A stretch of DNA of 43,511 nucleotides from a virus (lineage: Duplodnaviria; Heunggongvirae; Uroviricota; Caudoviricetes), in the IMG/VR virus record IMGVR_UViG_2529292919_000025. One strand, written 5' to 3'. Within the stretch, counting starts at the first letter, position 1. Every line of letters begins with the position of its first letter. This document shows positions 1 to 36,109 of the stretch, piece by piece. The notes beneath the pieces are model-generated. The model was given only the letters and a program-made list of their open reading frames with translations. It had not been told where the DNA came from and searched no databases. The translations under genes were made by a program, and so were the position numbers.

Positions 1-1260
1 ATGCCAAAACTCACAGATATGCAGATCCGCGCATGGATAAAGGCGGGAGACAGATTTGATGGCAAGGCAGACGGCAACGGCCTTTATATTTGCTACCCCA
101 AAAACTACACAGCCCCGTTCTGGCGATTCCGCTATAAGCTCGCAGGAAAGCAGCGGGCTATGGTTATAGGCTCTTACTCCGAACTGTCACTATCAAAAGC
201 CAGAGAAACAGCAAAAGAGCTGTCAGCCAGAGTTGCTCTTGGCTATGACGTAGCAGCAGAGAAACAGGAACGAAAAGCTGAAGCACTGGCAAAAATGGAG
301 GCTGAGAAAAACGCCATGCGTGTTTCAGATCTGGCCTCCGAATACTTCGAGCGCCAGATACTTCCGAGATGGAAACATCCCGATATCCTTCGCCGGAGAA
401 TTGATAAGGATATTAACCCCTGCATTGGGCATATGAAGGTAGAGGACGTTAAGCCACGCCACATTGACGACATGTTGAAAGGTATCGTTGACCGAGGAGC
501 ACCAACGATAGCAACAGATGTATTACGCTGGACACGCCGTATCTTTGACTACGGGATAAAACGCCACGCTCTGGAGATAAACCCTTGTTCAGCGTTTGAA
601 GTATCTGATGCTGGTGGTAAAGAGGTTTCCCGCGACCGTTGGCTAACTCGCGATGAGCTTATCAGGCTATTCGAGGCTATGCGCACCGCAAAAGGATTCA
701 GCCGCCAGAACGAACTGACATTTAAGCTATTGCTGGCACTATGCGTTCGTAAGATGGAGTTATGCGCCGCACGATGGGAAGAGTTTGATTTAGATGGTGC
801 GGTATGGCATTTGCCGGAAGAACGCAGCAAAAACGGAGACCCTATTGATATACCTCTACCTTCCCCAGCCGTTGAATGGTTGAGAGAGCTACACACCTTT
901 TCATGTAATAGCGCATGGGTGCTTCCAGCCAGGAAGATGCAAAACAGAATGATCCCACATATTCAGGAAAGCACTTTGCCCGTAGCACTGGCTAAGGTTC
1001 GCGCCGAAATGCCGGATGTGCCTAATTTCACGATTCACGACTTCCGACGCACCGCACGTACTCATTTAGCAGCGTTGGGTGTTGATCCTGTCGTGGCGGA
1101 ACGATGCCTCAATCATCGCATTAAGGGCGTAGAGGGGATTTATAACCGCCATCAGTATTTTGATGAGCGTAAAGCAGCACTGGCACAGTGGGCTGATCTG
1201 CTGGTGGCACTGGAAAGCGGAAAAGACTACAACGTAACGCCTCTCAGAAGGGCGAACTAA
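1..1260 (+). CDS. int: Tyrosine recombinase, P4-type island integrase
   Basis: 419-aa ORF starting at window base 1; C-terminal catalytic region with HDFRRTARTHL and terminal GIYNRHQY (R..H..R..Y tyrosine-recombinase pattern); N-terminal region typical of P4-family integrases. Confidence 0.85.
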   Translation: MPKLTDMQIRAWIKAGDRFDGKADGNGLYICYPKNYTAPFWRFRYKLAGKQRAMVIGSYSELSLSKARETAKELSARVALGYDVAAEKQERKAEALAKMEAEKNAMRVSDLASEYFERQILPRWKHPDILRRRIDKDINPCIGHMKVEDVKPRHIDDMLKGIVDRGAPTIATDVLRWTRRIFDYGIKRHALEINPCSAFEVSDAGGKEVSRDRWLTRDELIRLFEAMRTAKGFSRQNELTFKLLLALCVRKMELCAARWEEFDLDGAVWHLPEERSKNGDPIDIPLPSPAVEWLRELHTFSCNSAWVLPARKMQNRMIPHIQESTLPVALAKVRAEMPDVPNFTIHDFRRTARTHLAALGVDPVVAERCLNHRIKGVEGIYNRHQYFDERKAALAQWADLLVALESGKDYNVTPLRRAN

Positions 1261-2402: not shown

Positions 2403-2975
2403 TTACATTTCAGGTTGCGTTATGACAGTCCCAACAGGGTGGTAGCGGTAGATCGTTGACAGTCCAATATCATAGATAATTGCCAGCCGCTTTCTGTCAT
2501 ACCCTTTCTGGAGCAATCTTGCGATCTGCTCATGCTGCTCCTTCGTCAGTTTCGGGCGACGTCCTCCAACTCTCCCTTGTGCTCGCGCAGCAGCCAGTCC
2601 TGCCAGCGTGCGCTCAACTATCAGTTCACGCTCCATTTCTGCCAGTGCACCCATCATATGAAAAAAGAACCTTCCCATCGGAGTGCTGGTATCGATTGAA
2701 TCCGTCAGACTGCGAAAATTGACACCTTTTGCGCGTAGCTCTTCTGTGAGAGCAATGAGGTGTTTCATTCTTCTACCCAACCGATCCAGCTTCCAGACCA
2801 CCAATGTATCCCCTCTTTTAAGGCACTTTAAAGCGCGTTTCAGGCCTGGTCGTTCCGACTTGGTTCCGCTCATTTTGTCCTCAAAAATCTGTTCACATCC
2901 TGCGCACATTAATGCATTGCGTTGCAAATCTGTGTTTTGGTCATTTGCTGACACACGTATGTAGCCAATCAGCAT
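2403..2975 (-). CDS. Serine-recombinase DNA invertase, Hin/Gin/Pin/Cin family
   Basis: 190 aa; N-terminal resolvase/invertase catalytic motif (IGYIRVS...DxQ, GDTLVVWKLDRLGR) and C-terminal HTH; immediately adjacent to tail-fibre cassettes with hix/gix-like sites. Confidence 0.9.
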   Translation of the reverse strand: MLIGYIRVSANDQNTDLQRNALMCAGCEQIFEDKMSGTKSERPGLKRALKCLKRGDTLVVWKLDRLGRRMKHLIALTEELRAKGVNFRSLTDSIDTSTPMGRFFFHMMGALAEMERELIVERTLAGLAAARAQGRVGGRRPKLTKEQHEQIARLLQKGYDRKRLAIIYDIGLSTIYRYHPVGTVITQPEM

Positions 2976-3029
2976 TAAAAATACTCCCTTTTGAGTGGTT
3001 AAAGTACTGAGATAATGTGGGGAGGATTT

Positions 3030-3055
3030 GAGAGATAAACGTTGGTTTGGGGGAA
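3030..3055. other. hix/gix-like crossover site d (outer site; invertase-proximal half degenerate)
   Basis: GAGAGATAAACG-TT-GGTTTGGGGGAA; right half identical to site c. Confidence 0.55.
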
Positions 3056-3580
3056 GGCTCTGCGTTGCCCGTTGGTGTACCCGTTCCGTGGCCCTCAGCT
3101 ACACCGCCAACGGGCTGGCTGAAATGTAACGGCGCAGCATTTTCTTCTGAAGATTACCCCAAACTGGCACAGGCTTACCCCGCGAATAAATTACCGGATC
3201 TACGGGGTGAATTTATCCGTGGCTGGGATGATGGACGCGGCTTGGATGCTGGGCGTGCCTTGCTAAGTCTTCAGGATGACTCTTTTGAAGCGCACAGGCA
3301 TGAGTCCTTTTTTTATGCGGGTATTTCACGTAATGAAACCCCATTAAAAAATCTTCCAAGTTCAGACGAGATGCTGACTTTAAGTTCCACAACTAATGCC
3401 TTGTCCCCGGACGGTATTGATGCCACCAACTCGTTAATTGGTAATGACGATTACAACTGTCTTATCGAAGGGAATAAAAATAACAAACGAACAGCGACAA
3501 GACTGAGTACCAGTATTGTCGGCACAGCAGAAACACGCCCCCGCAACGTTGCATTCAATTACATCGTAAGAGCCGCATGA
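3047..3580 (+). CDS. Silent tail-fibre C-terminal cassette A (no in-frame ATG; expressed only after inversion)
   Basis: Begins with the shared GEGSALPVGVPVPWPSATPPTGWLKCNGAAFS segment and ends with the shared ETRPRNVAFNYIVRAA; track start is a TTG inside the crossover site. Confidence 0.6.
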   Translation: MGEGSALPVGVPVPWPSATPPTGWLKCNGAAFSSEDYPKLAQAYPANKLPDLRGEFIRGWDDGRGLDAGRALLSLQDDSFEAHRHESFFYAGISRNETPLKNLPSSDEMLTLSSTTNALSPDGIDATNSLIGNDDYNCLIEGNKNNKRTATRLSTSIVGTAETRPRNVAFNYIVRAA

Positions 3581-3599
3581 AAACGTTGGTTTGGGGGAA
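3574..3599. other. hix/gix-like crossover site c
   Basis: CGCATGAAAACG-TT-GGTTTGGGGGAA; exact reverse complement of site b (5135-5160). Confidence 0.6.
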
Positions 3600-4067
3600 G
3601 GCTCTGCACTGCCCGTTGGTGTGCCTGTTCCATGGCCCTCAGCCACACCACCAACGGGCTGGCTGAAATGTAACGGTGCAGCATTTTCTTCTGAAATGTA
3701 CCCCAATCTGGCAAAGGCCTACCCCACCAATAAATTACCGGATTTACGCGGTGAATTTATCCGTGGCTGGGATGATGGGCGAGGAATTGATGCGGCACGC
3801 GCTTTATTGAGCATTCAAAACGGGATGTTGGAAAAACACCGCCATATTGTTGTAGCTAACGATGGATATGACACAAAAGATGAATGGGAGTTGGCTACGA
3901 TTTTCAAAAAAACATATACACAAGGCAGGGGGCTTGATGCCACAAATACAGGAGGGAGTTTGATTCCATCACCAACGCTTCATTCACGAGGAAGTATTGG
4001 TAACACAGGTGGTAGTGAAACCCGCCCCCGCAATATTGCATTTAACTATATCGTGAGGGCGGCTTAG
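3591..4067 (+). CDS. Silent tail-fibre C-terminal cassette B
   Basis: Same conserved N- and C-terminal boundary segments as cassette A, different middle; no ATG start. Confidence 0.6.
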   Translation: MGEGSALPVGVPVPWPSATPPTGWLKCNGAAFSSEMYPNLAKAYPTNKLPDLRGEFIRGWDDGRGIDAARALLSIQNGMLEKHRHIVVANDGYDTKDEWELATIFKKTYTQGRGLDATNTGGSLIPSPTLHSRGSIGNTGGSETRPRNIAFNYIVRAA

Positions 4068-4073
4068 TTATAT

Positions 4074-4685
4074 TCAACTGGCTGCTGCCAGTGGTATTTC
4101 CGGCAAGTTGATATCTGGTACCATGTTTATATCCATTGCGTTCAGCGCGTCTATATAATCCAGCACGGCATTAAGCCGGGTGGTTTCTGCCTGCGTCAAC
4201 TTCCGCCCGGCCTGCAACTTCAACTGAATCAGACTTATGGAAGCCATTGCCGCATCAGCCAGTGACTGGCGCTTGGTTTCTGCCGCTTCTACTGCGGCAC
4301 GATGTTGTGCCTCAGTATCTGTCACCCATTTTTCACCATCCCATTTATCGTATGGTGTTAACGGGGCGATAGTGGTTGTAGTTTTCGGGTAGTCACCCAG
4401 CGCCGTGATTTCTTCGGTGTTTCCCGTGTCAGTGCTATAGACGGTTTCACCACGATGGTCTGGCGCATACTCCCATGAACTTAAATTCTCCGAACGGCGG
4501 ATAGCATAGCCCGCTTTATGTGCGCCCGGGGCATCTAAACAGGAATTTGCCGGAATACCGACACCCACAGCAAGATATTCAGTTGATTCGGAAATATATT
4601 CCCGTGTCTCACCATCATAGTTATAAACGACGATGTTTCCTGCCTGTACGGCAATAAGGTCATCATTTAATATCGCGTTATTCAT
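4074..4685 (-). CDS. Tail-fibre assembly protein (Tfa/U-like chaperone)
   Basis: 203 aa; start ATG overlaps the stop of cassette C (TAATG); typical Tfa-like sequence and position after a tail-fibre C-terminal segment. Confidence 0.75.
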   Translation of the reverse strand: MNNAILNDDLIAVQAGNIVVYNYDGETREYISESTEYLAVGVGIPANSCLDAPGAHKAGYAIRRSENLSSWEYAPDHRGETVYSTDTGNTEEITALGDYPKTTTTIAPLTPYDKWDGEKWVTDTEAQHRAAVEAAETKRQSLADAAMASISLIQLKLQAGRKLTQAETTRLNAVLDYIDALNAMDINMVPDINLPEIPLAAAS

Positions 4686-5143
4686 TATGCGGTTCTCACA
4701 ATATAATTGAAGGCAATATTGCGTGGGCGGTTTTCATTCCCATCTGAGGATTCCGTTCTGTATTGACTGGTAAATCTACCGTTAATTGCACCTTGCCGGA
4801 CGGCGTTATCTGTCGACAACAGACTATCCCCTCTTTTGTCATTTGGCACCAGTACCGTGTTATCCCACGCATCCCATGACCGAATATTATGATAATGACT
4901 TCCTGTTAACCACCCCTGCATGCTTAAGATGCCCCTTCCGGCATCCACCCCGCGCCCATCATCCCAGCCACGGATAAACTCACCGCGTAAATCAGGTAAT
5001 TTTAACGTTGGGTAAACCTTTGCCAGATTTGGGTACATTTCAGAAGAAAATGCTGCACCGTTACATTTCAGCCAGCCCGTTGGTGGTGTGGCTGAGGGCC
5101 ATGGAACAGGCACACCAACGGGCAGTGCAGAGCCTTCCCCCAA
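4685..5143 (-). CDS. Silent tail-fibre C-terminal cassette C (translationally coupled to the assembly gene)
   Basis: Shared N-terminal GEGSALPVG... and C-terminal RPRNIAFNYIVRTA; lies directly downstream of the expressed fibre gene on the same strand. Confidence 0.6.
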   Translation of the reverse strand: MGEGSALPVGVPVPWPSATPPTGWLKCNGAAFSSEMYPNLAKVYPTLKLPDLRGEFIRGWDDGRGVDAGRGILSMQGWLTGSHYHNIRSWDAWDNTVLVPNDKRGDSLLSTDNAVRQGAINGRFTSQYRTESSDGNENRPRNIAFNYIVRTA

Positions 5144-5160
5144 ACCAACGTTTTCATGCG
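5135..5160. other. hix/gix-like crossover site b
   Basis: TTCCCCCAAACC-AA-CGTTTTCATGCG; resembles hixL/gix consensus as I recall it (TTCTTGAAAACCAAGGTTTTTGATAA). Confidence 0.6.
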
Positions 5161-6650
5161 GCTCTTACGATGTAATTAAATGCAACGTTGCGAGGGCGAG
5201 TTTCTGTACCTACATTTCCACTAATTTCACCAAACCGTTTTACATTACGAGAGCTAATGGCTCGTAGTGAGGAAGGCACATTAAGACCGGGTTCGTCCGT
5301 TTTAACTATTCCCCCGTCACCGTATGTAGCCAGTATTCCTGGGTTTACTCCTTCCCGTGCACTTCCTGCGGCGAGTCCGTCCCCTGTCCATAATTCCATA
5401 TAGTGTGCATGGTCCAAAATTGTGTGTGGCTGCCAATTAAGCAAAGCGCGACCAGTATCAATCCCGCGACCGTCATCCCAGCCACGAATAAATTCACCGC
5501 GTAAATCAGGCAATTTATTGGTCGGGTAAGCCTTTGCCAGTTCCGGGTATTCTTCAGCAGAAAAAGCCGCACCGTTGCATTTCAGCCACCCCGTTGGCGG
5601 CGTGGCTGAAGGCCATGGAACGGGCACACCAACGGGCAGCGCCGAGCCTTCCCCTAAACCAAGGTAATTGAGGACTTCTTTTATACTGCCCATAGCGATA
5701 ATAGCGCGACCAATAGCTGTAAGGGTTGTCAGTGCTGCGCGGTCTGCTCCGGTAAAATAAGGCAACCGATCTGCTGCAGTGGCAAGTCCTGCCAGAGCAG
5801 TGAGCGTGGCATCTGCCGGTTGTTTTCCGTTTGCCAGATCGTATGCAGCCTTGACCGCTTTCGGTGTGGCGGCCAGTATTTCAGACGTGCTGTTGATGTC
5901 ACTGCTCAATTGTACGGTGCCTTTTGCCGTCAGCGAGGCAGCAGGCACTCCCGTTATCTGACTCCACGGGTGAGTGTGGCTGACGGGCGCCTTGCCGGCT
6001 GCAAGGTCGTATGCAGCCTTGACCGCCTTCGGTGTGGCGGCCAGTATTTCAGATTGACTGTCCGTGGCGCTGCTCAGTTGTACGGTGCCTTTTGCCGTCA
6101 GTGAAGCCGCAGGCACTCCCGTTATCTGACTCCACGGGTGAGTGTGGCTGGCAGGCGCCTTGCCGGCTGCAAGGTCGTATGCAGCCTTGACCGCCTTCGG
6201 CGTGGCAGCCTCAGTTTCTGATTGACTGTCCGTGGCGCTGCTCAGTTGTACGGTGCCTTTTGCCGTCAGCGAGGCAGCAGGCACTCCCGTTATCTGACTC
6301 CACGGGTGAGTATGGCTGACGGGGGCCTTGCCGGCAGCCAGGTCATATGCAGCCTTGACGGCCTTTGGTGTGGCGGCCAGCGTTTCAGAGGTGCTGTTGG
6401 TGGCACTGCTCAGTTGGGTGAACCCCTTAGCTGTCAGTGTCGCGTCCGGGTGGTTACGGGAACGTACGTGTTCAGCCAGTGACTGTGCGGCTTCCTCCGT
6501 TTTTTTCTTCAGCCATTTCGTCCTGTTTGCCAGTTGCCGGGGGGCTCGATTTGATATCCCGTCTGCACCACCCAGAACCGGATCTGATGTCTCCAGTTGA
6601 TAGATATTTTCTTCCCACTTTTCTGTTTCATTCAGGTTTCCCATAATCAA
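5154..6650 (-). CDS. Tail fibre protein (constant N-terminal part fused to currently expressed cassette D)
   Basis: 498 aa; N-terminal tail-fibre anchor region, 56-aa shaft repeats, then ...NYLGLGEGSALPVG crossover segment and a variable C-terminus ending ETRPRNVAFNYIVRAA. Confidence 0.85.
   Translation of the reverse strand: MIMGNLNETEKWEENIYQLETSDPVLGGADGISNRAPRQLANRTKWLKKKTEEAAQSLAEHVRSRNHPDATLTAKGFTQLSSATNSTSETLAATPKAVKAAYDLAAGKAPVSHTHPWSQITGVPAASLTAKGTVQLSSATDSQSETEAATPKAVKAAYDLAAGKAPASHTHPWSQITGVPAASLTAKGTVQLSSATDSQSEILAATPKAVKAAYDLAAGKAPVSHTHPWSQITGVPAASLTAKGTVQLSSDINSTSEILAATPKAVKAAYDLANGKQPADATLTALAGLATAADRLPYFTGADRAALTTLTAIGRAIIAMGSIKEVLNYLGLGEGSALPVGVPVPWPSATPPTGWLKCNGAAFSAEEYPELAKAYPTNKLPDLRGEFIRGWDDGRGIDTGRALLNWQPHTILDHAHYMELWTGDGLAAGSAREGVNPGILATYGDGGIVKTDEPGLNVPSSLRAISSRNVKRFGEISGNVGTETRPRNVAFNYIVRAA
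5649..5674. other. hix/gix-like crossover site a (inside the expressed fibre gene; fibre-constant-side half degenerate)
   Basis: TTCCCCTAAACC-AA-GGTAATTGAGGA; left half matches site b; encodes the LGLGEG junction. Confidence 0.55.
5811..6443. repeat. Tandem ~168-bp coding repeats (about 3.5 copies) in the tail-fibre shaft
   Basis: Protein repeat TAKGTVQLSSATDSQSE..ATPKAVKAAYDLAAGKAP.SHTHPWSQITGVPAASL recurs; accounts for the repetitive antisense ORFs at 5820-6482. Confidence 0.6.
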
Positions 6651-8713: not shown

Positions 8714-9310
8714 TCAGTGGGAGTGGTGGCTGGAGTTTTCGCCATCAGACAACATACTGCCCGTGGCATGGGCATTCCCTTTAATCTCGATATTGCCATG
8801 GATGGTCGCGGTAACACCTTCACCACCAGAACCCGCCATGCCTCCTTCGTAAATCAGCTTACCCCTGACACGCAGATCTCCGGTAAGTTCGGTTTCCGGT
8901 GCGTCAATCGTGGCTTTCTGTGTTTTCAATACCACATCAGCACCACACTCAATGACAATATGCTCAATGCCGCCCCGGATGGTCAGAGTGTGCGTCTTCC
9001 GGTTGTAGCTGTACTCTGCACCATCAGCAAACCGGGTTCCCCGGATATTTTTGTCACTGAACGGTGGTTTATCGACGTCTGAATACACCGCGCCCAGAAT
9101 AACACCATCCTCGCCGTTGGCATCGAGCAGCACCTCAACCTGCTCCCCCACGTCAGGGAGCCAGTAATCTTTGTTATCCTGGGTATTGCGCTGCAGCACG
9201 TTAAGCCAGTTTGTGCGCAGGTTATCGCATTCAGGCAGACGAACGCGGGCCTGAACCCTGTCGGCATCAACGGCACTGACCGTACCGACCTGACGAGTGA
9301 CACCAGTCAT
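8714..9310 (-). CDS. Baseplate spike/assembly protein V-like (Mu gp45 position)
   Basis: 198 aa, gpV-like N-terminal OB-like region and Gly-rich C-terminus. Confidence 0.65.
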   Translation of the reverse strand: MTGVTRQVGTVSAVDADRVQARVRLPECDNLRTNWLNVLQRNTQDNKDYWLPDVGEQVEVLLDANGEDGVILGAVYSDVDKPPFSDKNIRGTRFADGAEYSYNRKTHTLTIRGGIEHIVIECGADVVLKTQKATIDAPETELTGDLRVRGKLIYEGGMAGSGGEGVTATIHGNIEIKGNAHATGSMLSDGENSSHHSH

Positions 9311-10461
9311 TTTTTCTTCTCCTTAATCACCGTCGATGTACTGCCATCCGGGTGATAAACCGTGAGTTTCTGAGTTTTTTGTTTTTTCCCTCTTGTGACT
9401 GGCCCCCGTGCCACTTCCAGCTCTGTGGTGTAGCCGCTGTTACGGTCAAACGCATGGCGGGCAGTGGTTATGAGCCATGGCCCGGATAACTGCCCAAAAC
9501 CCACCAGTTCAATTTTGTTGCCTGCTGTCAGTTGAGGTGTTCCCGTCAGCGTCAGGGAGCCGTTCTGCTGGTATTCGTTATGTCTGGCCAGTGCTGAATC
9601 CGCTTTAATCCGGGCACTGTCCGGGTCGCTGACGCGGCTGTTAACTTGAAGTGAGTCAGCGCTGGTAACCTTACCACCTTTGAGCTTTTTGTCGCTTTCA
9701 CGGGTACCACCATCAGCTTCGTAGACGATCAGTTTTTTACTGCTGCTTTTCTGGTGTTTTACCTTTGCAGATTTATAGACCCGGTTGATGGTGTCACGCA
9801 GGGAAAAGCGGGCCACATCCTGCGGTTTTAACTGCCTGACCGGCTCCTGACTGCGCAGTGTGGCCAGATGAGAAAAAATCAGCTGGTCACTGACCACTTT
9901 CACTGCATAACCATACTCGCTGGCCAGCCGGCGCAGAAAACCCACGTCGGTTTCAGCATACTGGGTCACCCGGTCGATTCTGATGGACTCAATGCTGCCC
10001 ACCAGTTTCAGTCGGTGCTTTCTGGCAATCCGCCCCGCAACAGCTTCCAGCGTGGTGTTCTCAAAACCACGACTGGTTTTAGTCCGCAGGGCACTGTTAA
10101 CCGAGGTGGCCACCCCACGGATAGAAACAACGGAAGCGGGCGAACTCACTTCGATCTCGTCTATAGAGAACGTACCGCAGGACAGCAGCTTCTCGCCCTG
10201 ATAGCCCATTTTCAGCGTCAGCGTGTCACCCTTGCCCGGATACCATTTATCCAGCCAGCGGCCATCGGTGTCGTCCAGCTCCACCTCAATGGTATCGGAC
10301 TCATTTTTGATGTTATCGCTCCAGGTCACACGGGTGACATAAGGCGCGATATCAGAGGTGATGTTTTTCTGCAGATACCACAAAGTGAACACCGGTGTCA
10401 GCACATCGCTGACGCCGGTTAACGCTGATGTGACTTGCGCAGTGCTGTTTATCTCAGCCAT
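9307..10461 (-). CDS. Baseplate hub / tail protein D-like (P2 gpD-like, Mu gp44 position)
   Basis: 384 aa downstream of tape measure in the tail module. Confidence 0.65.
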   Translation of the reverse strand: MAEINSTAQVTSALTGVSDVLTPVFTLWYLQKNITSDIAPYVTRVTWSDNIKNESDTIEVELDDTDGRWLDKWYPGKGDTLTLKMGYQGEKLLSCGTFSIDEIEVSSPASVVSIRGVATSVNSALRTKTSRGFENTTLEAVAGRIARKHRLKLVGSIESIRIDRVTQYAETDVGFLRRLASEYGYAVKVVSDQLIFSHLATLRSQEPVRQLKPQDVARFSLRDTINRVYKSAKVKHQKSSSKKLIVYEADGGTRESDKKLKGGKVTSADSLQVNSRVSDPDSARIKADSALARHNEYQQNGSLTLTGTPQLTAGNKIELVGFGQLSGPWLITTARHAFDRNSGYTTELEVARGPVTRGKKQKTQKLTVYHPDGSTSTVIKEKKK

Positions 10462-10664
10462 GGGGCAATATCCTCTTCTGTACGGGCTTCTTCAGCCTCA
10501 ATCACCGGGATCAGTAACAACAGCCCGGAGGGCAGCACCGGCGTGATGGCCACGTGCGGATTGGCGGCAATAATCCGGGGATAGCCCAGCGGGTCACCGT
10601 AGTACTGCCATGCCAGCGAATCCCAGCGCTCTCCGTCACGGGTAACATGTTCAAGAAACATCAC
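10449..10664 (-). CDS. Tail protein X-like (LysM-like small tail protein)
   Basis: 71 aa with ...YYGDP...IIAANP... pattern reminiscent of P2 gpX; overlaps both neighbours. Confidence 0.5.
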   Translation of the reverse strand: MMFLEHVTRDGERWDSLAWQYYGDPLGYPRIIAANPHVAITPVLPSGLLLLIPVIEAEEARTEEDIAPWLR

Positions 10665-11545
10665 ACACTCCTCGTCAGTATTCTGGCGGCCATTGCACTT
10701 AATCCCGGAGACATGCGGTTGAATGCTGTGCCGGCGGCGTTAAGCTGCCCGGAAACGGTATCCAGAGCACCTGCAATATTTCTTTTGTCCACACCACTCA
10801 GCGCAGACTGTGCCTGCTGTACATACGTGACTGCTTCGCTGGCTGTTCTGGCCAGACTGATGGCATCGGGCATGGATTCAGAGAGTGCGTTAAACGCCGG
10901 AACACTTTTCCCCAGAGCCCCGGAGATATTACCCAGTCCGCTCATCAGCCCCGGCACACGGGTCAGTGCGACAACGGGGTTATCCTTCATTTTCTGTGTC
11001 ACCCGAACGGCGCTGATAGTGGTCTGGAGTACAGACTGCGCCTGTTTCGCATAGTTGACGCCGTTGCGGATGAACTGCGCCACCCCTGAAGGTGAAGGTA
11101 TGGCACCGGAGACCGCCCCGACACCCGGGAGCTTCGTGCGTATTGCCGGTGGTTGCAGAGGATTTTTCGGGTCACCGGTGTATTCCCGGAGAGACACGGT
11201 GGCACTGACAGCCAGCACGTTGCCGGTACTGTCAGTCTGCTCGCTGGTTGCAGTCACATCGGTAATCACGAACCAGCCGCGATAGTCACCGTTGCCGAAG
11301 ACCAGCGCCAGTGCCTGATGGGCTTTCATGGCTGTTCGCAGTCTCGCCAGCTCCACATCGGGTACACAATAATGCTGATGGAAAACCAGAGTTATCTGGA
11401 TTTCGTCCAGCCTGTCGCCGACGAACTGCAGGCCAGGCTTACCCCCGATGCGGGCATGCTCCGCATAATCGACGCCGAACGTGGCCTCGAAGCCGTCCCA
11501 GTAGGTAATCAGCTCAAACTCAATATCACCCAGTACGGCAAACAT
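10661..11545 (-). CDS. Tail protein (P2 gpU-like N-terminus; Mu gp43 DNA-circulation position)
   Basis: 294 aa immediately after tape measure; N-terminal ~110 aa gpU-like, Ser/Ala-rich C-terminus. Confidence 0.55.
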   Translation of the reverse strand: MFAVLGDIEFELITYWDGFEATFGVDYAEHARIGGKPGLQFVGDRLDEIQITLVFHQHYCVPDVELARLRTAMKAHQALALVFGNGDYRGWFVITDVTATSEQTDSTGNVLAVSATVSLREYTGDPKNPLQPPAIRTKLPGVGAVSGAIPSPSGVAQFIRNGVNYAKQAQSVLQTTISAVRVTQKMKDNPVVALTRVPGLMSGLGNISGALGKSVPAFNALSESMPDAISLARTASEAVTYVQQAQSALSGVDKRNIAGALDTVSGQLNAAGTAFNRMSPGLSAMAARILTRSV

Positions 11546-14496
11546 CAGCGGTACTCCTTACGTTGTTTCTGAGCCAGCAGACGCTCCAGCATTTTTTCCA
11601 GCTCATGCAGGCTCATATTCAGGGCGCCAGTCAGTCCGGCAGGCGCTGTGGTTTCCCTGCCATTGAGGAAAAACTGAGGATTAAAGCTGACCTGGATACC
11701 ACCAGACGTTCCACCGCCGGTTGCAGCTGCACCACGGCCTGAATATCCGGCAGCCATGATTTCAGGCGAGGGGATACGGGGAACATCCGGTGTCATCTCA
11801 TTTGCCAGACGTTGCCCTGGTAAAATCGATGCCCGGGTGGAGAGCGGGATAGCGGGCATGGAAGACAAACTATTGATTACGGCTCCGATCGCATTTTTAG
11901 CAGACGACATAAACCCGTTGATATCGGGCAACGGCATACTGAAGCGAACACCTGAAGTGTTATCCCGTATTTCTGGCCCCTGAATGCTCACGGGCATTCT
12001 GGGGAGCAGTTCACTGGCCATTCGCTGCCCGGCCAGAGCTGCAAGCGGAGTGGTCCGCTGCAGGCCAATGGCGGCCCCCTGCGCGATATTGTCACCAAAG
12101 CCCATAAACACGCGGCTCGGCGAATGAATACCCAGCTTTTCACTGAACCAGCCACTGATGCTGTCACCCATTCCGGTTACACTGGATTTGAGCGACTCCC
12201 ATTTGTTTTTGATACCGTTAATCAGACCGTCGACAAGATGGCCACCGAAGTCGGTGAACTTTGCCGGCAGATCAACACCAAGATATTTCAGCGCAGCTGC
12301 AAAGGCTTTATAGAGCAGACCTGCCGGCGACCAGTTAATCAGCAGCTTACCAGTTCCCGCGATACCGCCGTTAAAGGCTTCCTGAATGTCAGCCCAGCAC
12401 TGTTTAAACCAGCTACTGATGCTGTCACCCATTCCGGTTACACTGGATTTGAGCGACCCCCATTTGTTTTTGATACCGTTAATCAGACCGTCGATAAGAT
12501 GGCCACCGAAGTCGGTGAACTTTGCCGGCAGAGCAACGCCGAAATATTTCAGCGCAGCCGCAAAGGCTTTATAGAGCAGGCCTGCCGGCGACCAGTTAAT
12601 CAGCAACTTACCAATTCCCACAATGCCGCCGTTAAAGGCTTCCTGAATGTCTGCCCAGCGCTGTTTAAACCAGCCACTGACTGCCCCCCAGTTGCGGTAG
12701 ATAAGGTAAGCTGCTGCCGCGACAGCGGTGATAACGAGACCGATGGGATTCATCATCAGCGCACGTCCAATCCAGAGAACAGCACGTCCGGCGAGCATAA
12801 TTCCGCGAACCAGCCCCCCGGAGAGCACGCCACTCAGTGTTCTGGCTCCTCTGGCGACGGCGCTAAATCCGGTCACCAGCCAGCGGAGCTTACCGCCTTG
12901 CCCCAGTGCGAGCGACAGACGAAGCCAGTTGGCCCGAAGTAAAACAGCATTTTTCCAGACACTTACAAAGGGGGAAATAAGGAGATTCAGCCCCAGTTTG
13001 AGACCAACAGTCGCTATCTTAATCGCAAGGAGCGCACTGATGAGCTTAAAAGCCCCACTGACAAATTGCGGGTGAGTCGCTACCCAGTGTTTTGCCCCCT
13101 GAATGAGTGGAAGCAGTTCCTGAGTCAAAGAAATAAAAGATGGAGCTAATTGATCGCCCAGCGTAATTGCCAGATCGCGACTGCTGACCATAAGTGTTTT
13201 AGTGGCTTCAAGGGGGGATTTCAGCCGCTGATCATAAGCACTGGCAAGCAAATCGTTATCCGCAGCCCTGAGAGCACCGGCACGGATCTCTCGATATCTG
13301 TCCATGTTGGCCAGCATCGGGCGGATAAATGCCATGACCTGCATATCCGCGAACATATCGCCCAGACCAAAGTTTTTCGCCAGAGCCTGAAGTGCCTCAT
13401 CTCTTGCCGTATCATTCTTTATTTTCATGGCTGATTTGAAGCCGGCCAGCGCTTCGGGGCTTTTGGCATTGAGGTAACGTTCTATAACACTCAACATCCC
13501 TTCAATCGGAGAGATCCCCGCAGCTTTATAACTCGCAATAGATCCCTGCAAATCAATACCCAGATCAGCAAACTGTTTCTGAGTATCGCGGGCAAAAATT
13601 TTGGTAAGAAAGTTTTTAAAATTATTGGCTGCTTCGTCGGTGGAACCTGCACCGATTTTTGCTATCTGGAGACTGGCCCCGATTTCAGCAACAGCCTCTT
13701 TTCCACTGGCAATACCCGCCATCATTGGGGCCAGGGACTGCATCCACTTGACCTGATCCGGAATTTCAAATGACCCCTGGTCACCGGCATAAGCCATAAT
13801 ATTCTGAACGGCACCAAAATCTCTGGCCGCACCTTTCAGGGAGTTTTGCCAGACTGCGGCCACTTTTGCCCAGTCCTGAGCAGACGTGCGTGTTGCCGTT
13901 GCCGCGCGGGCAATATCCGGCATCAGAAAACCGATATCTGACACATTATCAATATTGTCGCTGATGAGTGAACCCACCGCCTCCTGCAACTCATCCTGAT
14001 ACTGATTGTATTTAAGCGCCCAGCCTTTTATCTGTCCGGCAAGTCCATCCCGCGTTTTATTGTCATATTTTGCGGTGATCGACATATCAATCATTTTGTC
14101 CTGAAAAGACATGGACTGCTGAACGGCAGGGGAAACCGTATGATAAACAGTCTGTGCCATGCCATACGCTTCAATCCCCTGACCATACAGCGCCATGCGG
14201 TTAGCTTTCAGCGCATCACTGGTAGCGGATGCCGCTGACAGACGGCGCTGCTGGCGCTCAATTTGCTCCATGGTGCGGCTTACCCGCAGCAGCTCGCTGT
14301 TGAGATGCTGCATCCGGGAAGAACCCAGTTGACCATAACGTTCTGTTGCACGGGTTAAAGCGTTCTGACGTTCCTGCAGGCGGCGTGAGGTATCGCTCAG
14401 GGAATCAAGCGCACGGCGGGTACCGCTCATTGCAGAACGGAATGTGCTACCAATCATCCCGCCGATAACAACGCCGACTGAAAACTGTCCCGACAT
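11545..14496 (-). CDS. Tail tape measure protein
   Basis: 983 aa, alpha-helical and Gly/Ala-rich, after the tail chaperone pair; contains an internal 88-aa tandem duplication. Confidence 0.85.
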   Translation of the reverse strand: MSGQFSVGVVIGGMIGSTFRSAMSGTRRALDSLSDTSRRLQERQNALTRATERYGQLGSSRMQHLNSELLRVSRTMEQIERQQRRLSAASATSDALKANRMALYGQGIEAYGMAQTVYHTVSPAVQQSMSFQDKMIDMSITAKYDNKTRDGLAGQIKGWALKYNQYQDELQEAVGSLISDNIDNVSDIGFLMPDIARAATATRTSAQDWAKVAAVWQNSLKGAARDFGAVQNIMAYAGDQGSFEIPDQVKWMQSLAPMMAGIASGKEAVAEIGASLQIAKIGAGSTDEAANNFKNFLTKIFARDTQKQFADLGIDLQGSIASYKAAGISPIEGMLSVIERYLNAKSPEALAGFKSAMKIKNDTARDEALQALAKNFGLGDMFADMQVMAFIRPMLANMDRYREIRAGALRAADNDLLASAYDQRLKSPLEATKTLMVSSRDLAITLGDQLAPSFISLTQELLPLIQGAKHWVATHPQFVSGAFKLISALLAIKIATVGLKLGLNLLISPFVSVWKNAVLLRANWLRLSLALGQGGKLRWLVTGFSAVARGARTLSGVLSGGLVRGIMLAGRAVLWIGRALMMNPIGLVITAVAAAAYLIYRNWGAVSGWFKQRWADIQEAFNGGIVGIGKLLINWSPAGLLYKAFAAALKYFGVALPAKFTDFGGHLIDGLINGIKNKWGSLKSSVTGMGDSISSWFKQCWADIQEAFNGGIAGTGKLLINWSPAGLLYKAFAAALKYLGVDLPAKFTDFGGHLVDGLINGIKNKWESLKSSVTGMGDSISGWFSEKLGIHSPSRVFMGFGDNIAQGAAIGLQRTTPLAALAGQRMASELLPRMPVSIQGPEIRDNTSGVRFSMPLPDINGFMSSAKNAIGAVINSLSSMPAIPLSTRASILPGQRLANEMTPDVPRIPSPEIMAAGYSGRGAAATGGGTSGGIQVSFNPQFFLNGRETTAPAGLTGALNMSLHELEKMLERLLAQKQRKEYR
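12151..12678. repeat. Tandem duplication (2 x ~264 bp) inside the tape measure gene
   Basis: Two near-identical adjacent DNA copies encoding SGWFKQ(R/C)WADIQEAFNGGI...GMGDSIS; boundaries approximate. Confidence 0.65.
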
Positions 14497-14571: not shown

Positions 14572-14829
14572 CTATGATTTGTCGCCGTACTCGCTTTTGA
14601 TTTGCTCTTCAGCCTGCTCCAGCCACATCTCCAGATCGTCAGTATCGAGGGCATCAATCTCCCCCGGCTGAAACCGGAACCATCTCGCCAGCAGCCCCTG
14701 CGCCTGCGTCAGCGCCTTTGTCGCTCTCACCCATCCCCGTGATGAGCTGAAATCGTTTCTGTAACTGCAGGTAATCAGCCAGGTCCATATTGTCGAGATC
14801 TTCCGGGAGAAGACCAGTACTGCGGGCAA
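14572..14829 (-). CDS. Tail assembly chaperone frameshift extension (gpE'/GT-like), downstream frame
   Basis: ORF in the +1 frame relative to 14654-14989, overlapping it by 176 nt and extending 27 codons further towards the tape measure. Confidence 0.45.
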   Translation of the reverse strand: MPAVLVFSRKISTIWTWLITCSYRNDFSSSRGWVRATKALTQAQGLLARWFRFQPGEIDALDTDDLEMWLEQAEEQIKSEYGDKS

Positions 14830-14989
14830 TCAGCGGTTCGTCCCAGTCTGCCGGGTTTTTGCTGATTTTGCGCACCTGCTTCAGGTCTTTTACCGTCAGG
14901 CGTTTCAGTTCAACCTGCTCAATTCTGGTGCCTGCAGCAGTGGTGAAGGGATAAGACAATTTAAAAGTATCGGATGGGGTCTGTGACAT
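14654..14989 (-). CDS. Tail assembly chaperone (gpE/G-like), upstream frame
   Basis: 111 aa directly upstream of the tape measure; acidic C-terminus; overlapped by a second ORF in another frame. Confidence 0.6.
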   Translation of the reverse strand: MSQTPSDTFKLSYPFTTAAGTRIEQVELKRLTVKDLKQVRKISKNPADWDEPLIARSTGLLPEDLDNMDLADYLQLQKRFQLITGMGESDKGADAGAGAAGEMVPVSAGGD

Positions 14990-15370: not shown

Positions 15371-15892
15371 TCAGCCCCCGATATTGATACGGTAGTCAGT
15401 CAGTTGATCAACACCGCCGACCCGGAAGATGTTGGCCAGATAGTCCAGTTGCAGCAGCTCTTCACCATCCAGTACCTGTCTGATATACGTGCAGGTGAAG
15501 CTACTGGAGAACTCGGCGTTCTCGTGCTGTTTGAACGTCCCCAGCGGGTTCTTCTTGAACATAATCGTCAGGAAGGTGACCAGCGGGATTTCGTCAATCA
15601 GCCCCTGCGAGCTGTAGCGCTGGACGCTGGAACGACACTGCAGTGCCAGCGACCTGTACGGGTTCGCGGCAGACAGCATCGCATCGCGGTAAAAGCTGTT
15701 CCATTTGATTTCGCCTTCCAGTTTGTCAAAACCAGCCGGGAGTTCCACCTTACCCACCATCCCCAGCGCCTTGTGTTCCTGCATAATCATGGAGACATCG
15801 GGGAGTTTAACTTCCTCAGCCCGTCCCAGCAGGTTAGTACCATCCAGATAGATGTTGGCATTCGTGATGCGGTTTATCTCAATCTTTGACAT
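15371..15892 (-). CDS. Tail tube protein (FII-like / Mu M position)
   Basis: 173 aa immediately downstream of the sheath, 1-nt overlap. Confidence 0.75.
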   Translation of the reverse strand: MSKIEINRITNANIYLDGTNLLGRAEEVKLPDVSMIMQEHKALGMVGKVELPAGFDKLEGEIKWNSFYRDAMLSAANPYRSLALQCRSSVQRYSSQGLIDEIPLVTFLTIMFKKNPLGTFKQHENAEFSSSFTCTYIRQVLDGEELLQLDYLANIFRVGGVDQLTDYRINIGG

Positions 15893-17319
15893 CAGTTGCC
15901 CCCTTTCAGGGTTAACAGGTATTCCGAGGTGATCTCAGTCTCAAACGTCAGTCGCTCCAGCGGCGGTGGTGGCGTATATTTGTAGCTCAGCAACAGGTGC
16001 CCGGCGGCCAGCTCCGTCTCCGGATTGCGGGCCGGATCAAACCAGCAACGGAAGCCCAGTACCGCACCATCACCAGTCATTTTGCGACCGTAGGCGTTGA
16101 CCGACTCCGTCAGTGCATCAATCAGCGCCTGAGTAATCGGCATGTCGATGTACTGCTGGCTGAAATAACGAATGGACTCGTTGATCACATCACCGGTGCG
16201 GCGAACGTTCTCAAAGTTACGCATATGGGTGACCGTTGGCCATGCTGCCGTCCGGTTACCCCACAGACGAAGGCCGCTGCCGTAACTGCTGAATACCGTG
16301 GTGATCCCCTGTTCGTTAAGCAGGTTCACCTCACTCTGCGGGTCATCAATCATCGCGGACAGCTGGCGCTCCACGCCGGTGATCCCCAGAATCTCCTGAT
16401 TGGAGGATGACCACCAGTAGCCCTTGTCCAGATCGACTCTGGCACGCAGACCTGCTGCACGCTGGCTGAGCGGCTCCAGACGCTCTGTGTTTGTCACCGG
16501 GTCATATACCTTCACATGCGGATAGCACAGACGGACGCGGTCGGAGCTGGTATTGAAGTTGATGGTGCCTTCCGGGCCACGACCTGCCAGAGCCTGTGCA
16601 AAGGTGGTACCGACAGGCGCATCAATGTAGGTTACCGCGCCCAGCTTCTCTGCCATGGCGATAAGCTCAACTGCGACACTCTTCTGGGTGCAGAACACCG
16701 GCGCAATCAGAATTTTGGCGAAATAGCCGTACAGGTTGAAGCTGTCGTTAAGCAGCTTCATGCCGGTTCGGTTTCCGGCGCTGTTCACCCCGCCGATGAT
16801 GTCCGCCGCAGTCACCTTCGACGGGTCCGCGTACTCATAGCTCACCTTCACGCTGCCACCGGCCTCAATAGCCTTGCCCAGGTTCGTGAGCACACCCGCC
16901 TGCGCATCAACACGGTAGTCCGTGTTCGCCGTGTGGGTGGTGCTGCCTTCACTGTTTTTCACCACCACATTAGCGACAACCGGATGCGCCAGTCTGGCCT
17001 GCCCTGTCGATTTGTCAAAGGTAACCACCTCATCCTCGATCGCCGTTTTATGTTTCGCCGGGTCGAGGACGTTAATGACCAGAACGGTGCCTGCACCATG
17101 GTCATAAATCGCATCCAGCGCCTGCGGAATGGTAAAGCCGGTGAACTGGCTGCCAAATGCCGCTGCGTCTTTCTCAGACAGGCACTGTACCAGCGTATTG
17201 ACATCCCCCATCGGGGCGGTACCAATCAGGCCAATAACGGCAGATTTCACCGTTTTAACCGGGCGGGCTCCGTTTTCCACCTCAATGGTTTCGGGACCAT
17301 GCAGATAGTTAGCTGCCAT
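15892..17319 (-). CDS. Contractile tail sheath protein (Mu L-like)
   Basis: 475 aa, sheath-like sequence, followed by tube gene. Confidence 0.8.
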   Translation of the reverse strand: MAANYLHGPETIEVENGARPVKTVKSAVIGLIGTAPMGDVNTLVQCLSEKDAAAFGSQFTGFTIPQALDAIYDHGAGTVLVINVLDPAKHKTAIEDEVVTFDKSTGQARLAHPVVANVVVKNSEGSTTHTANTDYRVDAQAGVLTNLGKAIEAGGSVKVSYEYADPSKVTAADIIGGVNSAGNRTGMKLLNDSFNLYGYFAKILIAPVFCTQKSVAVELIAMAEKLGAVTYIDAPVGTTFAQALAGRGPEGTINFNTSSDRVRLCYPHVKVYDPVTNTERLEPLSQRAAGLRARVDLDKGYWWSSSNQEILGITGVERQLSAMIDDPQSEVNLLNEQGITTVFSSYGSGLRLWGNRTAAWPTVTHMRNFENVRRTGDVINESIRYFSQQYIDMPITQALIDALTESVNAYGRKMTGDGAVLGFRCWFDPARNPETELAAGHLLLSYKYTPPPPLERLTFETEITSEYLLTLKGGN

Positions 17320-33162: not shown

Positions 33163-34932
33163 ATGACCCCGGCACTGACTGAAAAACTGGTTGAAACAGC
33201 CCGCGCGGCACGTGACGCGGGGCATGGTAAACGCGGTGCAATATACGACGCTGCCTGTGCTGAACTTGGCATGTCCCGCGCCACTCTGCTGCGCAGGCTG
33301 AAGGAGGTCTCTGTGACTGATAAACGCAAAAAACGCGCCGATGCCGGGCGCAGCGCCCTGACCCGCGACGAAGCCGCGCTGATATCTGCCACACTGCGTG
33401 AGGCCACCCGCAAGAACGGTAAGCGTCTCTATTCCATCGCGGATGCAGTGGAAACCCTGCGGGCTAACGGCTTTATATCCGCAGGCAGAACAGATGAAAC
33501 CACCGGTGAGTTTTTCCCGTTGTCCGAAGATGCCATCAGCCGAGCCCTGCGTAACTATGGCCTGCACCCGGAACAACTGGATGCCCCTGCGCCGCATACC
33601 GAAGTGGCCAGTCTGCATCCCAATCATGTCTGGCAGATTGATGCCTCGCTCTGCACGCTTTACTACCTGAGTAATGGACACAAAGGACTGCAGGTGATGG
33701 ACAGCGCGAAGTTCTACAAGAACAAGCCCGCTAACCTTGCCCGTATCGCCAGTGACCGCGTGTGGAGTTACGAGATTACCGACCATGCCAGCGGCTGGAT
33801 TTACGTTGAGTATGTGACGGGTGCGGAATCCGGTGAGAACCTGTGTTCTGTGCTTATCAACGCCATGCAGGAGCGTGGCGGCGCAGACGTGCTGCACGGC
33901 GTGCCGAAAATACTCTATCTCGACCCCGGCTCGGCAAACACCGCGGGTATGACGAAAAACATGTGCCGCTCACTGGGCATCGACCTGATAGCACACAAGC
34001 CGCATAACGCCCGCGCCACCGGACAGGTGGAAAAGGCGCGTGACATTATCGAACGCAAGCTGGAGCCGGGTCTGAAGTTCCGGCCGGTTCACAGTCTGGA
34101 AGAACTCAACGCGCTGGCCGCGAAATGGCGCAGCCACTTTAACGCCACGGCTGTTCACAGCCGCCACGGTAAAACCCGCACGGATATCTGGCTGAAGATT
34201 ACTGCTGAGCAGCTGAAAAAAGCGCCTTCCGTTGAGGTATGCCGTGAACTGGCTGTGGCGACACCAGAACTCCGCAAAGTCACGCCAAAACTTCGTGTCT
34301 CGTTCCGGGGCACTGAATTTGACGTATCAACGGTACCGGGCGTACTGGTCGGTGAAAAACTGATGATTACCCGTAACCCGTGGCGCAGCGATGTGGCACA
34401 GGTGGTTCTGACCGGTGAGGACGGCCACGAGGCGTTCTTCCTGGTCGAAGAGGTCAGAAAGAACGAGTTTGGCTTTGCTGAAAGCGCGGCGGTATTTGGC
34501 GAAAGTTACAAAGCCCTGCCGGAAACCCCGGCGCAGATGGCGGCAAAAGAAACCGAAGCGCTGGTCACCGGTACAGACAACGCCGCAGATGCAGCTGCCG
34601 CACGCAAGGCGAAGGCGCTGCCGTTCGGCGGGCGGCTTGACCCATATAAACATATTGATGACGCCACACTTCCGGCCTGTATACCGAAGCGAGGTCAGGC
34701 CTCTGACGTACGCGGGCTGCGCACTGAACAACGTCCCATGACTCATGTGGAGGCCGCGAAAGCCCTGCGCGATAAGTTCAGCGCCGACGGCCTTACCTGG
34801 ACGCCGGAACATTACCGCCAGTTAACGGCACAGTATCCGGACGGCGTACCGGAAGCCGCACTGGATGAAGTCATGGCCACGCTGACCACGCCGGCCCGCA
34901 GCAGCGTTATCAGCATTGTTAACGGCAACTGA
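33163..34932 (+). CDS. DDE transposase (MuA-like function)
   Basis: 589 aa; N-terminal HTH, central integrase-core-like region with candidate catalytic D residues (HVWQIDAS, ILYLDPGSANT) and a downstream E; followed by AAA+ ATPase, as in transposable phages. Confidence 0.75.
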   Translation: MTPALTEKLVETARAARDAGHGKRGAIYDAACAELGMSRATLLRRLKEVSVTDKRKKRADAGRSALTRDEAALISATLREATRKNGKRLYSIADAVETLRANGFISAGRTDETTGEFFPLSEDAISRALRNYGLHPEQLDAPAPHTEVASLHPNHVWQIDASLCTLYYLSNGHKGLQVMDSAKFYKNKPANLARIASDRVWSYEITDHASGWIYVEYVTGAESGENLCSVLINAMQERGGADVLHGVPKILYLDPGSANTAGMTKNMCRSLGIDLIAHKPHNARATGQVEKARDIIERKLEPGLKFRPVHSLEELNALAAKWRSHFNATAVHSRHGKTRTDIWLKITAEQLKKAPSVEVCRELAVATPELRKVTPKLRVSFRGTEFDVSTVPGVLVGEKLMITRNPWRSDVAQVVLTGEDGHEAFFLVEEVRKNEFGFAESAAVFGESYKALPETPAQMAAKETEALVTGTDNAADAAAARKAKALPFGGRLDPYKHIDDATLPACIPKRGQASDVRGLRTEQRPMTHVEAAKALRDKFSADGLTWTPEHYRQLTAQYPDGVPEAALDEVMATLTTPARSSVISIVNGN

Positions 34933-34942
34933 GGAGGGAAAC

Positions 34943-36109
34943 ATGCTGGTACTGAAGCAGCAACTGAAAGAGGCCCGTATTCCACAGGCGGTGGTGGCGA
35001 GAGCTGTCGATGTTTCTGAGGCCACGCTGGCCCAGATTGTGAATCATAACGCGTGGCCCCGCACCAGCCCCGGAGAAGTGCGCCGGCGTCTTGCGTCCTG
35101 GCTGGAAAGTCAGGGGATTGATACAGCGAAGAGTTTTGATGCTGTACAGGGCGCGGCCACGCCCCGTACAGCGGGTACCACAGATAAAACGAGCCTCAGT
35201 GAGGAAGAGAATATGTTACTCAAAAAACAGGTGTTATTTCCAGCAACCAAAAAAGCGTTTGGTCTTTTCCGTGACCCGTTCGCCGACGAAGCCATGCAGG
35301 GTTCTGATGATGTGTTCACCACACCAGACATTCGCTACGTGCGTGAGGCGTTGTACCAGACAGCCCGTCATGGTGGGTTTATGGCCGTCATCGGTGAGTC
35401 CGGTGCGGGTAAATCCACGCTGCGCCGTGACCTGACTGAACGTATCAACCGCGAGAATGCGCCGGTAATTGTTATCGAGCCATACATCATTGCCATGGAA
35501 GACAACGATGTGAAAGGGAAAACCCTGAAGGCAGCAGCTATTGCCGAAGCCATTATCAGTACCATCGCGCCACTGGAAAGCATCAGACGCAGTCAGGACG
35601 CCCGCTTTCGCCAGTTGCATCGCGTCCTGAAAGACAGCAGCCAGGCGGGGTTCAGCCACGTTCTGGTGATTGAGGAGGCCCACAGTCTGCCCATTCCGAC
35701 ACTGAAACACCTCAAACGCTTTTTTGAGCTGGAGTCCGGTTTCAAAAAACTGCTGTCCATCGTGCTGATTGGCCAGCCGGAACTGGCGACAAAACTGTCT
35801 GAACGCAACATGGAAGTCCGCGAAGTCGTTCAGCGCTGTGAGGTGGTCGAACTTCTGCCTCTGGACAATCACCTTGAAGAATTTCTGACGTTCAAACTGC
35901 AACGGGCCGGTAAACAACTGACGGACATTATGGACGCCAGCGCAGTGGATGCCATACGTACCCGCCTGAGCAATCCGGGAAGTCATCGTAAAAATATGGT
36001 TAGCCTGCTGTATCCGCTGGCCGTCAGTAACCTGGTAATAGCCGCCATGAATCTGGCCGCTGAAATCGGGGTTCCACAGGTCAACGCTGACGTTGTCAAA
36101 GGGGTTTAA
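34943..36109 (+). CDS. MuB-like AAA+ ATPase, transposition target-DNA activator
   Basis: Walker A GESGAGKST, Walker B VLVIEEAH; ATG at 34943 preceded by GAGGAGGG; N-terminal HTH-like region. Confidence 0.75.
   Translation: MLVLKQQLKEARIPQAVVARAVDVSEATLAQIVNHNAWPRTSPGEVRRRLASWLESQGIDTAKSFDAVQGAATPRTAGTTDKTSLSEEENMLLKKQVLFPATKKAFGLFRDPFADEAMQGSDDVFTTPDIRYVREALYQTARHGGFMAVIGESGAGKSTLRRDLTERINRENAPVIVIEPYIIAMEDNDVKGKTLKAAAIAEAIISTIAPLESIRRSQDARFRQLHRVLKDSSQAGFSHVLVIEEAHSLPIPTLKHLKRFFELESGFKKLLSIVLIGQPELATKLSERNMEVREVVQRCEVVELLPLDNHLEEFLTFKLQRAGKQLTDIMDASAVDAIRTRLSNPGSHRKNMVSLLYPLAVSNLVIAAMNLAAEIGVPQVNADVVKGV

Follow-up and report, generated by a model that had tools for sequence, protein, structure and literature searches.

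The tape measure gene and its repeat array

We focus here on a tandem repeat in the tape measure gene of the IMG/VR record IMGVR_UViG_2529292919_000025, a stretch of 43,511 nucleotides from the Caudoviricetes that was analysed as a whole and is called the window below. To judge from its gene content, the element is a BcepMu-like transposable Escherichia coli (E. coli) prophage with a P2-type contractile tail. By the textbook account, how long a phage tail grows is set by the length of its tape measure, and a first-pass annotation of the window had read the repeat as a recent duplication that should give a longer tail than in relatives with a single copy. The history that we consider quite probable is a different one, in which an old in-frame duplication of an 87-residue module in a BcepMu-like tape measure has undergone recurrent out-of-register recombination, with an effect on the tail ruler that we infer.

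The gene lies on the minus strand and encodes a product of 983 residues (coordinates of all features are collected in Table 1). Database matches identify this open reading frame (ORF) as a tape measure protein: it scores 74 bits with Pfam PF10145, whose cut-off is 33.2, and E=7e-134 with PHROG 28, 'tail length tape measure protein', and RefSeq genomes at 99.9% identity label the same gene 'phage tail tape measure protein'. In the window as a whole, Tandem Repeats Finder detects a single array (period 261, about 2.0 copies, 93% matches, score 958, 0 indels), a separate repeat search finds 94% identity between two 261-nucleotide copies (12146-12406 and 12407-12667), and pairwise alignment of the two copies gives 16 substitutions and 0 gaps. 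Chance is far too weak to yield an adjacent 261-nucleotide repeat at such identity. Set in the frame of the minus-strand gene, the array is head-to-tail and in frame, with 261 bp or 87 residues per unit, and the gene-upstream copy (unit A) differs from the gene-downstream copy (unit B) at 8 of 87 residues. Repeat detection, alignment and the Pfam and PHROG matches thus bear out an in-frame tandem duplication of two adjacent units inside the tape measure gene. The unit size first given, 264 bp or 88 residues, is one codon too large, and of the extent first given, 12151-12678, the start is the exact in-frame edge of a unit and the end lies two codons past the array. The borders of the array share an S-[GS]-W-F edge motif (VSGWF, ISSWF and ISGWF in the protein sequence), which is why the extent delimited by Tandem Repeats Finder runs some bases beyond two units; this motif is likely to be the microhomology of the original duplication.

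The repeat unit is amphipathic and rich in glycine (13 of its 87 residues), with aromatic residues at unit positions 1, 2, 6, 13, 27, 34, 37, 43, 44, 52, 55 and 71. The array begins 8 residues past the second of two hydrophobic, transmembrane-like segments, in the C-terminal third of the protein, and a conserved GIHSPSRVF motif just downstream is its fixed right-hand anchor in all alleles; the module is thus seated between hydrophobic segment 2 and this motif. An AlphaFold2 model of the full protein, built with 24 close homologues, is unreliable (mean predicted local distance difference test score, pLDDT, 31.6) and is mostly helix to about residue 830, and a sequence search of solved structures returned no informative homologue, its sole match being a marginal one to 9m8o chain M, 'Gp14' (E=0.17). 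On the plus strand, an ORF of 272 residues (12124-12942) runs antisense across the array and is most likely a mechanical ORF opposite the tape measure gene.

Copy number in related prophages

The tape measure gene was matched in 636 of 5,426 complete E. coli genomes, and the best 60 of these 636 matches are all uninterrupted, exactly 2952 bp long and 98.8-99.9% identical, with the 16 differences between A and B recurring across genomes. At 95% identity or more, complete genomes contain roughly 590 closely related alleles. In the protein collection, length classes of 896, 983 and 1070 residues correspond to one, two and three units, and all three lengths recur as intact ORFs in closed genomes. 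Copy number was estimated in an evenly spaced sample of 60 of the 634 matching genome records, by the span in each record; counting by coverage of at least 80% with one-, two- and three-unit queries is unusable because overlapping pieces are trimmed and joined. The sample comprises 39 two-unit, 14 three-unit and 2 one-unit records and 5 others. An uninterrupted one-unit allele is found in 13 records, one-copy alleles occurring at 98-99% identity; the window itself carries the common two-unit allele, and a synthetic four-unit query against the complete E. coli genomes detected no four-unit allele. Relatives do therefore differ in copy number, with one, two or three units, and the single-copy relatives that the first-pass annotation had supposed exist; the three-copy alleles had escaped it.

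The repeat was also expected to be a trouble spot for assembly, and this holds in other records. Escherichia phage PhiKM (PQ738613.1) has a sequencing gap of 100 Ns inside the array, and its tape measure is annotated in two pieces. Annotation suffers as well: in RefSeq, four of six intact three-unit genes are given as two partial pseudogene fragments, although those of NZ_CP146591.1 and NZ_CP142930.1 are full ORFs of 1070 residues and those of NZ_CP107184.1 and NZ_CP119734.1 are open throughout the retrieved stretches, apparently because the extra repeat breaks the annotation's protein alignment. In practice, the repeat breaks short-read assemblies, one-unit alleles in such assemblies call for caution, and a pseudogene label in RefSeq may mark an intact three-unit gene. 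Two further length variants are known from one contig each and are possibly artefactual, namely protein P0018 (1084 residues), with an out-of-register duplication of about 101 residues across hydrophobic segment 2 and the start of unit A, and protein P0034 (995 residues), with a 12-residue duplication (GDSISSWFKQCW) at the unit junction.

Unequal crossing-over between the units

Since the duplication, the two-unit array has been a substrate for homologous recombination out of register. When unit A on one DNA copy recombines with unit B on a second copy, the product is a one-unit gene whose unit is a chimera with an A head and a B tail; the reciprocal product has three units, the middle one being a chimera with a B head and an A tail. 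The 16 sites at which A and B differ served as markers for scoring every unit. Among the one-unit alleles, FCI23 and UPEC129 read aaaaaaaabbbbbbbb, F1140 reads aaaaaaaaaaaaaaab and AVS0947 reads abbbbbbbbbbbbbbb, so that the one-unit alleles from closed genomes have three distinct breakpoints, each a single A-to-B switch, a class of pattern that makes up 17 of the 65,536 possible at 16 sites. The three-unit alleles of A1.S1.65, B20123 and R3 have A, a middle unit reading bbbbbbaaaaaaaaaa and B, with no mutation beyond the window's own units, and those of 2016C-3878, GPEC172 and E92 have the arrangement A', A', B, in which the A unit is repeated. The direction of the switch matches the prediction from unequal crossing-over in every case, a-to-b for contraction and the reverse for expansion.

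The backgrounds on which these changes sit are almost invariant. The 809 residues outside the array are identical or differ at 1-2 residues between alleles of differing copy number, and within every one of the three core lineages two or three copy numbers occur. Clean single switches on near-identical backgrounds thus point to recurrent unequal crossing-over, and the marker patterns demonstrate at least three independent contractions and at least two independent expansions in complete genomes. In the two-unit allele of Ecol_276, a patch of B states inside unit A indicates conversion or a past cycle of expansion and contraction. Two tape measure genes can also reside in one genome, as in NZ_AP022326.1 (E. 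coli O25:H4 strain 18044), which has a two-unit gene at about 3.14 Mb and a three-unit gene at about 1.46 Mb; such co-resident prophage copies could be recombining with each other.

Age and ancestry of the duplication

The outgroup for the array consists of more distant tape measures of 821 residues (E. coli 3-72, NCTC_13148 and Klebsiella phage KP12), which have one unit with interleaved A and B states, as an ancestral single copy should, the marker patterns of outgroup single units being ababbabbabaabaxb and abbbaabbabaababb. Polarised with this outgroup, the 16 differences split about 9:7 between A and B and are interleaved along the unit. Synonymous divergence (dS) between units A and B is 0.148, with a ratio of non-synonymous to synonymous divergence (dN/dS) of 0.28; for the rest of the gene, compared between the two main lineages, dS is 0.087 and dN/dS is 0.20. 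Since the A and B states are shared across lineages and the units are more diverged at synonymous sites than the lineages are, the duplication predates the diversification of the prophage group. These comparisons thus show an old duplication of what had been a single unit, later than the separation from the 821-residue lineage, and two copies that have diverged to 6% at the nucleotide level while both being under purifying selection.

The description of the duplication as recent does not survive this comparison, given in addition that most of the alleles in complete E. coli genomes have the two-copy A/B state. Close relatives with one unit show a single clean switch where the outgroup is interleaved; they are derived rather than ancestral, and an ancestral status of the in-group one-copy alleles is rejected on this ground. 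They are secondary deletions and cannot serve as the baseline that the first-pass annotation had made of them. The gene has a further length difference from the outgroup, a 71-residue segment (residues 823-893) flanked by a repeated 21-residue motif, GQRMASELLPRMPVSIQGPEI and GQRLANEMTPDVPRIPSPEI, with a spacing of 71 residues. To judge from the alignment, this segment is a second, older length change in the tape measure gene.

The module in distant tape measures

Among 1.84 billion cluster representatives, 604 proteins match unit A at E<=0.001, of which 323 at E<=1e-10. Full copies were counted in the 150 matches listed of the 604 and in the window: a single copy is present in 123 proteins, two copies in 25, three in 2 and four in 1. 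The spacing of copies differs by lineage among the matches listed, 76 residues being commonest, followed by 87 and 113-114, and one protein repeats a sub-unit of 42-44 residues. In P0143, P0132, P0122 and P0123 the protein's own copies are more alike than either is to any unit in another representative, which indicates separate duplications. From this distribution, the stretch before GIHSPSRVF is a recurrent site of tandem duplication in the tape measure family, and the A/B pair of the window is the youngest among the representatives listed. The distant multi-copy representatives are metagenomic proteins, and the single-copy P0145 cluster is from Serratia.

Predicted consequences for tail length

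With a ruler of about 0.145-0.15 nm per residue, each 87-residue unit would add about 13 nm of tail, or three to four rings of the tail tube and sheath if these rise by about 4 nm each, and we infer by analogy three discrete tail lengths within one prophage group. In phage TP901-1, tape measure deletions shorten the tail linearly, by 0.145 nm per residue, and this includes the deletion of a hydrophobic region (Mahony 2016, PMC5099701). The transposable myophage KS10 has a tape measure of 811 residues and a tail of about 140 nm (PMC2628397). For PhiKM, a literature search returned papers on phiKMV only and no morphology.

One may go further and propose a natural tail-length switch in a single, widespread E. 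coli prophage species, in which three forms maintained by selection, spaced by steps of about 13 nm, are interconverted by recurrent unequal crossover. We regard this extension as rather unlikely. If true, selection might act, for example, by matching the reach of the tail or its DNA conduit to the thickness of the host envelope or capsule, and the system would rank among the few documented instances in which a phage with a contractile tail tunes its length by tandem repeats.

Alternative explanations

That the array is an assembly artefact, the spurious expansion of a single unit in the window, has next to no probability. Repeats of this size do break assemblies, as the gap in PhiKM illustrates, but the two-copy array is no such artefact because the identical 2952-bp gene recurs in several hundred E. 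coli genomes that were closed independently, and spurious expansion would not be expected to leave 16 fixed differences between A and B that are kept from genome to genome. Shared structure and fixed differences together effectively rule it out, and the assembly artefact that would have refuted the first-pass annotation is not borne out at this locus. A recent duplication private to this prophage, in which the close relatives with one copy would keep the ancestral state, is very improbable. It would suit two adjacent copies that are 94% identical and the existence of one-copy alleles at 98-99% identity; however, the A/B marker states are common to all lineages of the group, the copies are more diverged in dS than the lineages are, and the in-group one-copy alleles are single A-to-B switches at three positions where the outgroup is interleaved. 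The array could instead have been built by recombination of two tape measure alleles that had already diverged, in which case the 6% difference would be uninformative on age. Phage tail genes are mosaic, and the B patch in the first unit of Ecol_276 is evidence of exchange between units, but outgroup-polarised differences that split about 9:7 and are interleaved rather than blocked are as expected for divergence in place, and no fully B-type single-unit allele was seen in the protein collection; we consider such an origin improbable.

The consequence for the tail is where the alternatives carry more weight. The copy-number polymorphism may be real and tail length unchanged, with the distal module lying in the baseplate hub or in an expelled membrane or periplasmic conduit, so that extra units would affect DNA delivery or be almost neutral; this, the main rival to the ruler reading, we take to be possible without favouring it. 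The array comes right after two transmembrane-like segments and in the C-terminal third of the protein, its unit is amphipathic and rich in glycine, the coexistence of three copy numbers on almost the same background suits a change of low cost, and the introduction of one study (PMC5099701) ascribes channel-forming roles to the hydrophobic regions of tape measures. On the other hand, the TP901-1 tail became shorter when a hydrophobic region was deleted too, and length there depends on about 810 of 937 residues (PMC5099701); both units are under purifying selection (dN/dS 0.28), and the low-confidence model runs mostly as helix through them.

Several points weigh against our own account of an old duplication with recurrent recombination and a ruler effect. 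The helical state of the repeat unit is only weakly indicated by the model, and a Gly-rich unit near the C-terminal, tail-tip end might be partly folded or located in the hub instead of serving as an extended ruler. The tail-length step is taken over from other phages. Genome counts are swollen by clonal sampling, for example of sequence type 131 (ST131). Some one-unit proteins from short-read or Logan assemblies could be collapse artefacts, and the longest stretches of identity, where recombination and assembly collapse are both favoured, are also where the breakpoints seen in the proteins lie; since the short-read one-unit entries are suspect, the argument for contraction rests on closed genomes.

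Prophage context

On the minus strand, the gene order of sheath, tube, assembly chaperone, tape measure, gpU and gpD is that of a P2-type tail cassette (Table 1), in which the tape measure sets the polymer length of the tail tube protein. A second minus-strand ORF (14572-14829, PHROG 8286) overlaps the gpE-like chaperone ORF in another frame, and overlapping chaperone ORFs are the usual layout for a programmed frameshift upstream of tape measure genes. Apart from a DDE transposase and a MuB-like ATPase, the window encodes Portal_Mu, Phage_Mu_Gp27 and a Dam methylase, and its nearest phage record, and the sole one closely related, is PhiKM, at 96% identity and classified as Bcepmuvirus.

Table 1. 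Positions of the tape measure features, the tail genes around them and the transposition genes in the window (aa, amino acid residues)
Feature	Position	Strand	Basis and remarks
Tape measure protein gene, 983 aa	11545-14496	minus	ORF, Pfam PF10145, PHROG 28 and 5690
PF10145 'phage minor tail protein' domain, tape measure N-terminal part	13477-14022	minus	aa 159-340, Pfam
Hydrophobic, transmembrane-like segment 1	12958-13068	minus	aa 477-513, Kyte-Doolittle scan
Hydrophobic, transmembrane-like segment 2	12697-12783	minus	aa 572-600, Kyte-Doolittle scan
Whole tandem array (2.05 copies)	12146-12680		Tandem Repeats Finder
Repeat unit A, gene-upstream copy	12412-12672	minus	aa 609-695; repeat detection, alignment, translation
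Repeat unit B, gene-downstream copy	12151-12411	minus	aa 696-782; 16 nucleotides and 8 aa different from unit A
GIHSPSRVF motif, conserved	12106-12132	minus	aa 789-797, just downstream of the array
71-aa segment missing from 821-aa outgroup tape measures	11818-12030	minus	aa 823-893
gpU-like tail protein, directly downstream of the tape measure	10661-11545	minus	Pfam
gpD	9307-10461	minus	Pfam / PHROG
Tail assembly chaperone, gpE-like, PF10109, upstream of the tape measure	14654-14989	minus	Pfam, PHROG
Tail tube protein, PF04985	15371-15892	minus	Pfam
Contractile tail sheath protein	15892-17319	minus	Pfam, PHROG
rve-domain (DDE) transposase	33163-34932		Domain match
AAA ATPase, MuB-like	34916-36109		Domain match

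Elsewhere in the window, a serine invertase of the Gin/Hin type (2403-2975, minus strand) lies near long inverted repeats (3528-3817 and 4917-5206, 290 nucleotides at 91%; 3037-3275 and 4915-5153), and several short ORFs with tail-collar domains are found on opposite strands beside the genes for the tail fibre (5154-6650) and for fibre assembly (4074-4685). From this layout, positions 2403-5210 are likely to be an invertible tail-fibre segment. A tyrosine integrase ORF starts at base 1 of the window (1-1260), and an IS66-family transposase lies near its right end (40266-41837).

Comparison with known systems

In-frame length changes in tape measure proteins are already known, as are variable numbers of tandem units. 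Length changes in lambda gpH and in the TP901-1 tape measure protein were reportedly described by Katsura and Hendrix in 1984 and by Pedersen in 2000, respectively. As in lambda gpH, TP901-1 and T4 gp29, what we describe is in-frame duplication and deletion in a ruler protein, with about 0.145-0.15 nm of tail per residue in those systems; the changes there were engineered or selected in the laboratory, whereas the one-, two- and three-unit alleles here occur naturally within a single prophage group. For a contractile tail, T4 gp29 is the ruler precedent cited (Abuladze 1994). Within the family, P2 gpT and BcepMu-type tape measures share PF10145 and PHROG 28 and the same order of sheath, tube, E/E', T, U and D, and the 821-residue relatives differ in having one unit and lacking the 71-residue segment.

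Tandem repeats of 11 residues marked by aromatics were described by Belcaid et al. (2011) in the tape measures of mycobacteriophage, staphylococcal and lactococcal siphophages (PMC3271669). The likeness to the present array lies in a variable number of tandem units that are duplicated and lost (PMC3271669); here, however, the unit has 87 residues, which is not a multiple of 11, its aromatics are irregularly placed and the tail is contractile. An 11-residue substructure of the unit was rejected, the period being 87 residues and the aromatics having no 11-residue rhythm. According to a 2026 survey, myovirus tape measures are typically without tandem repeats (PMC13585406).

With unequal crossing-over as a general mechanism, the array has in common the chimeric junction units, their predicted orientation in both contraction and expansion, and the multiple breakpoints; the exchange may take place in the prophage, in the course of replicative transposition or between co-resident prophages. 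To our knowledge, natural variation in tape measure length inside one phage group has seldom been documented. The matched alleles of one, two and three units on near-identical backgrounds thus offer a natural test of how the ruler model fares in a contractile tail, and they sit in sequenced, available strains. What sets this system apart from those already described is a polymorphism of one, two and three units at the level of the population, with traceable recombination junctions, in a contractile-tailed phage.

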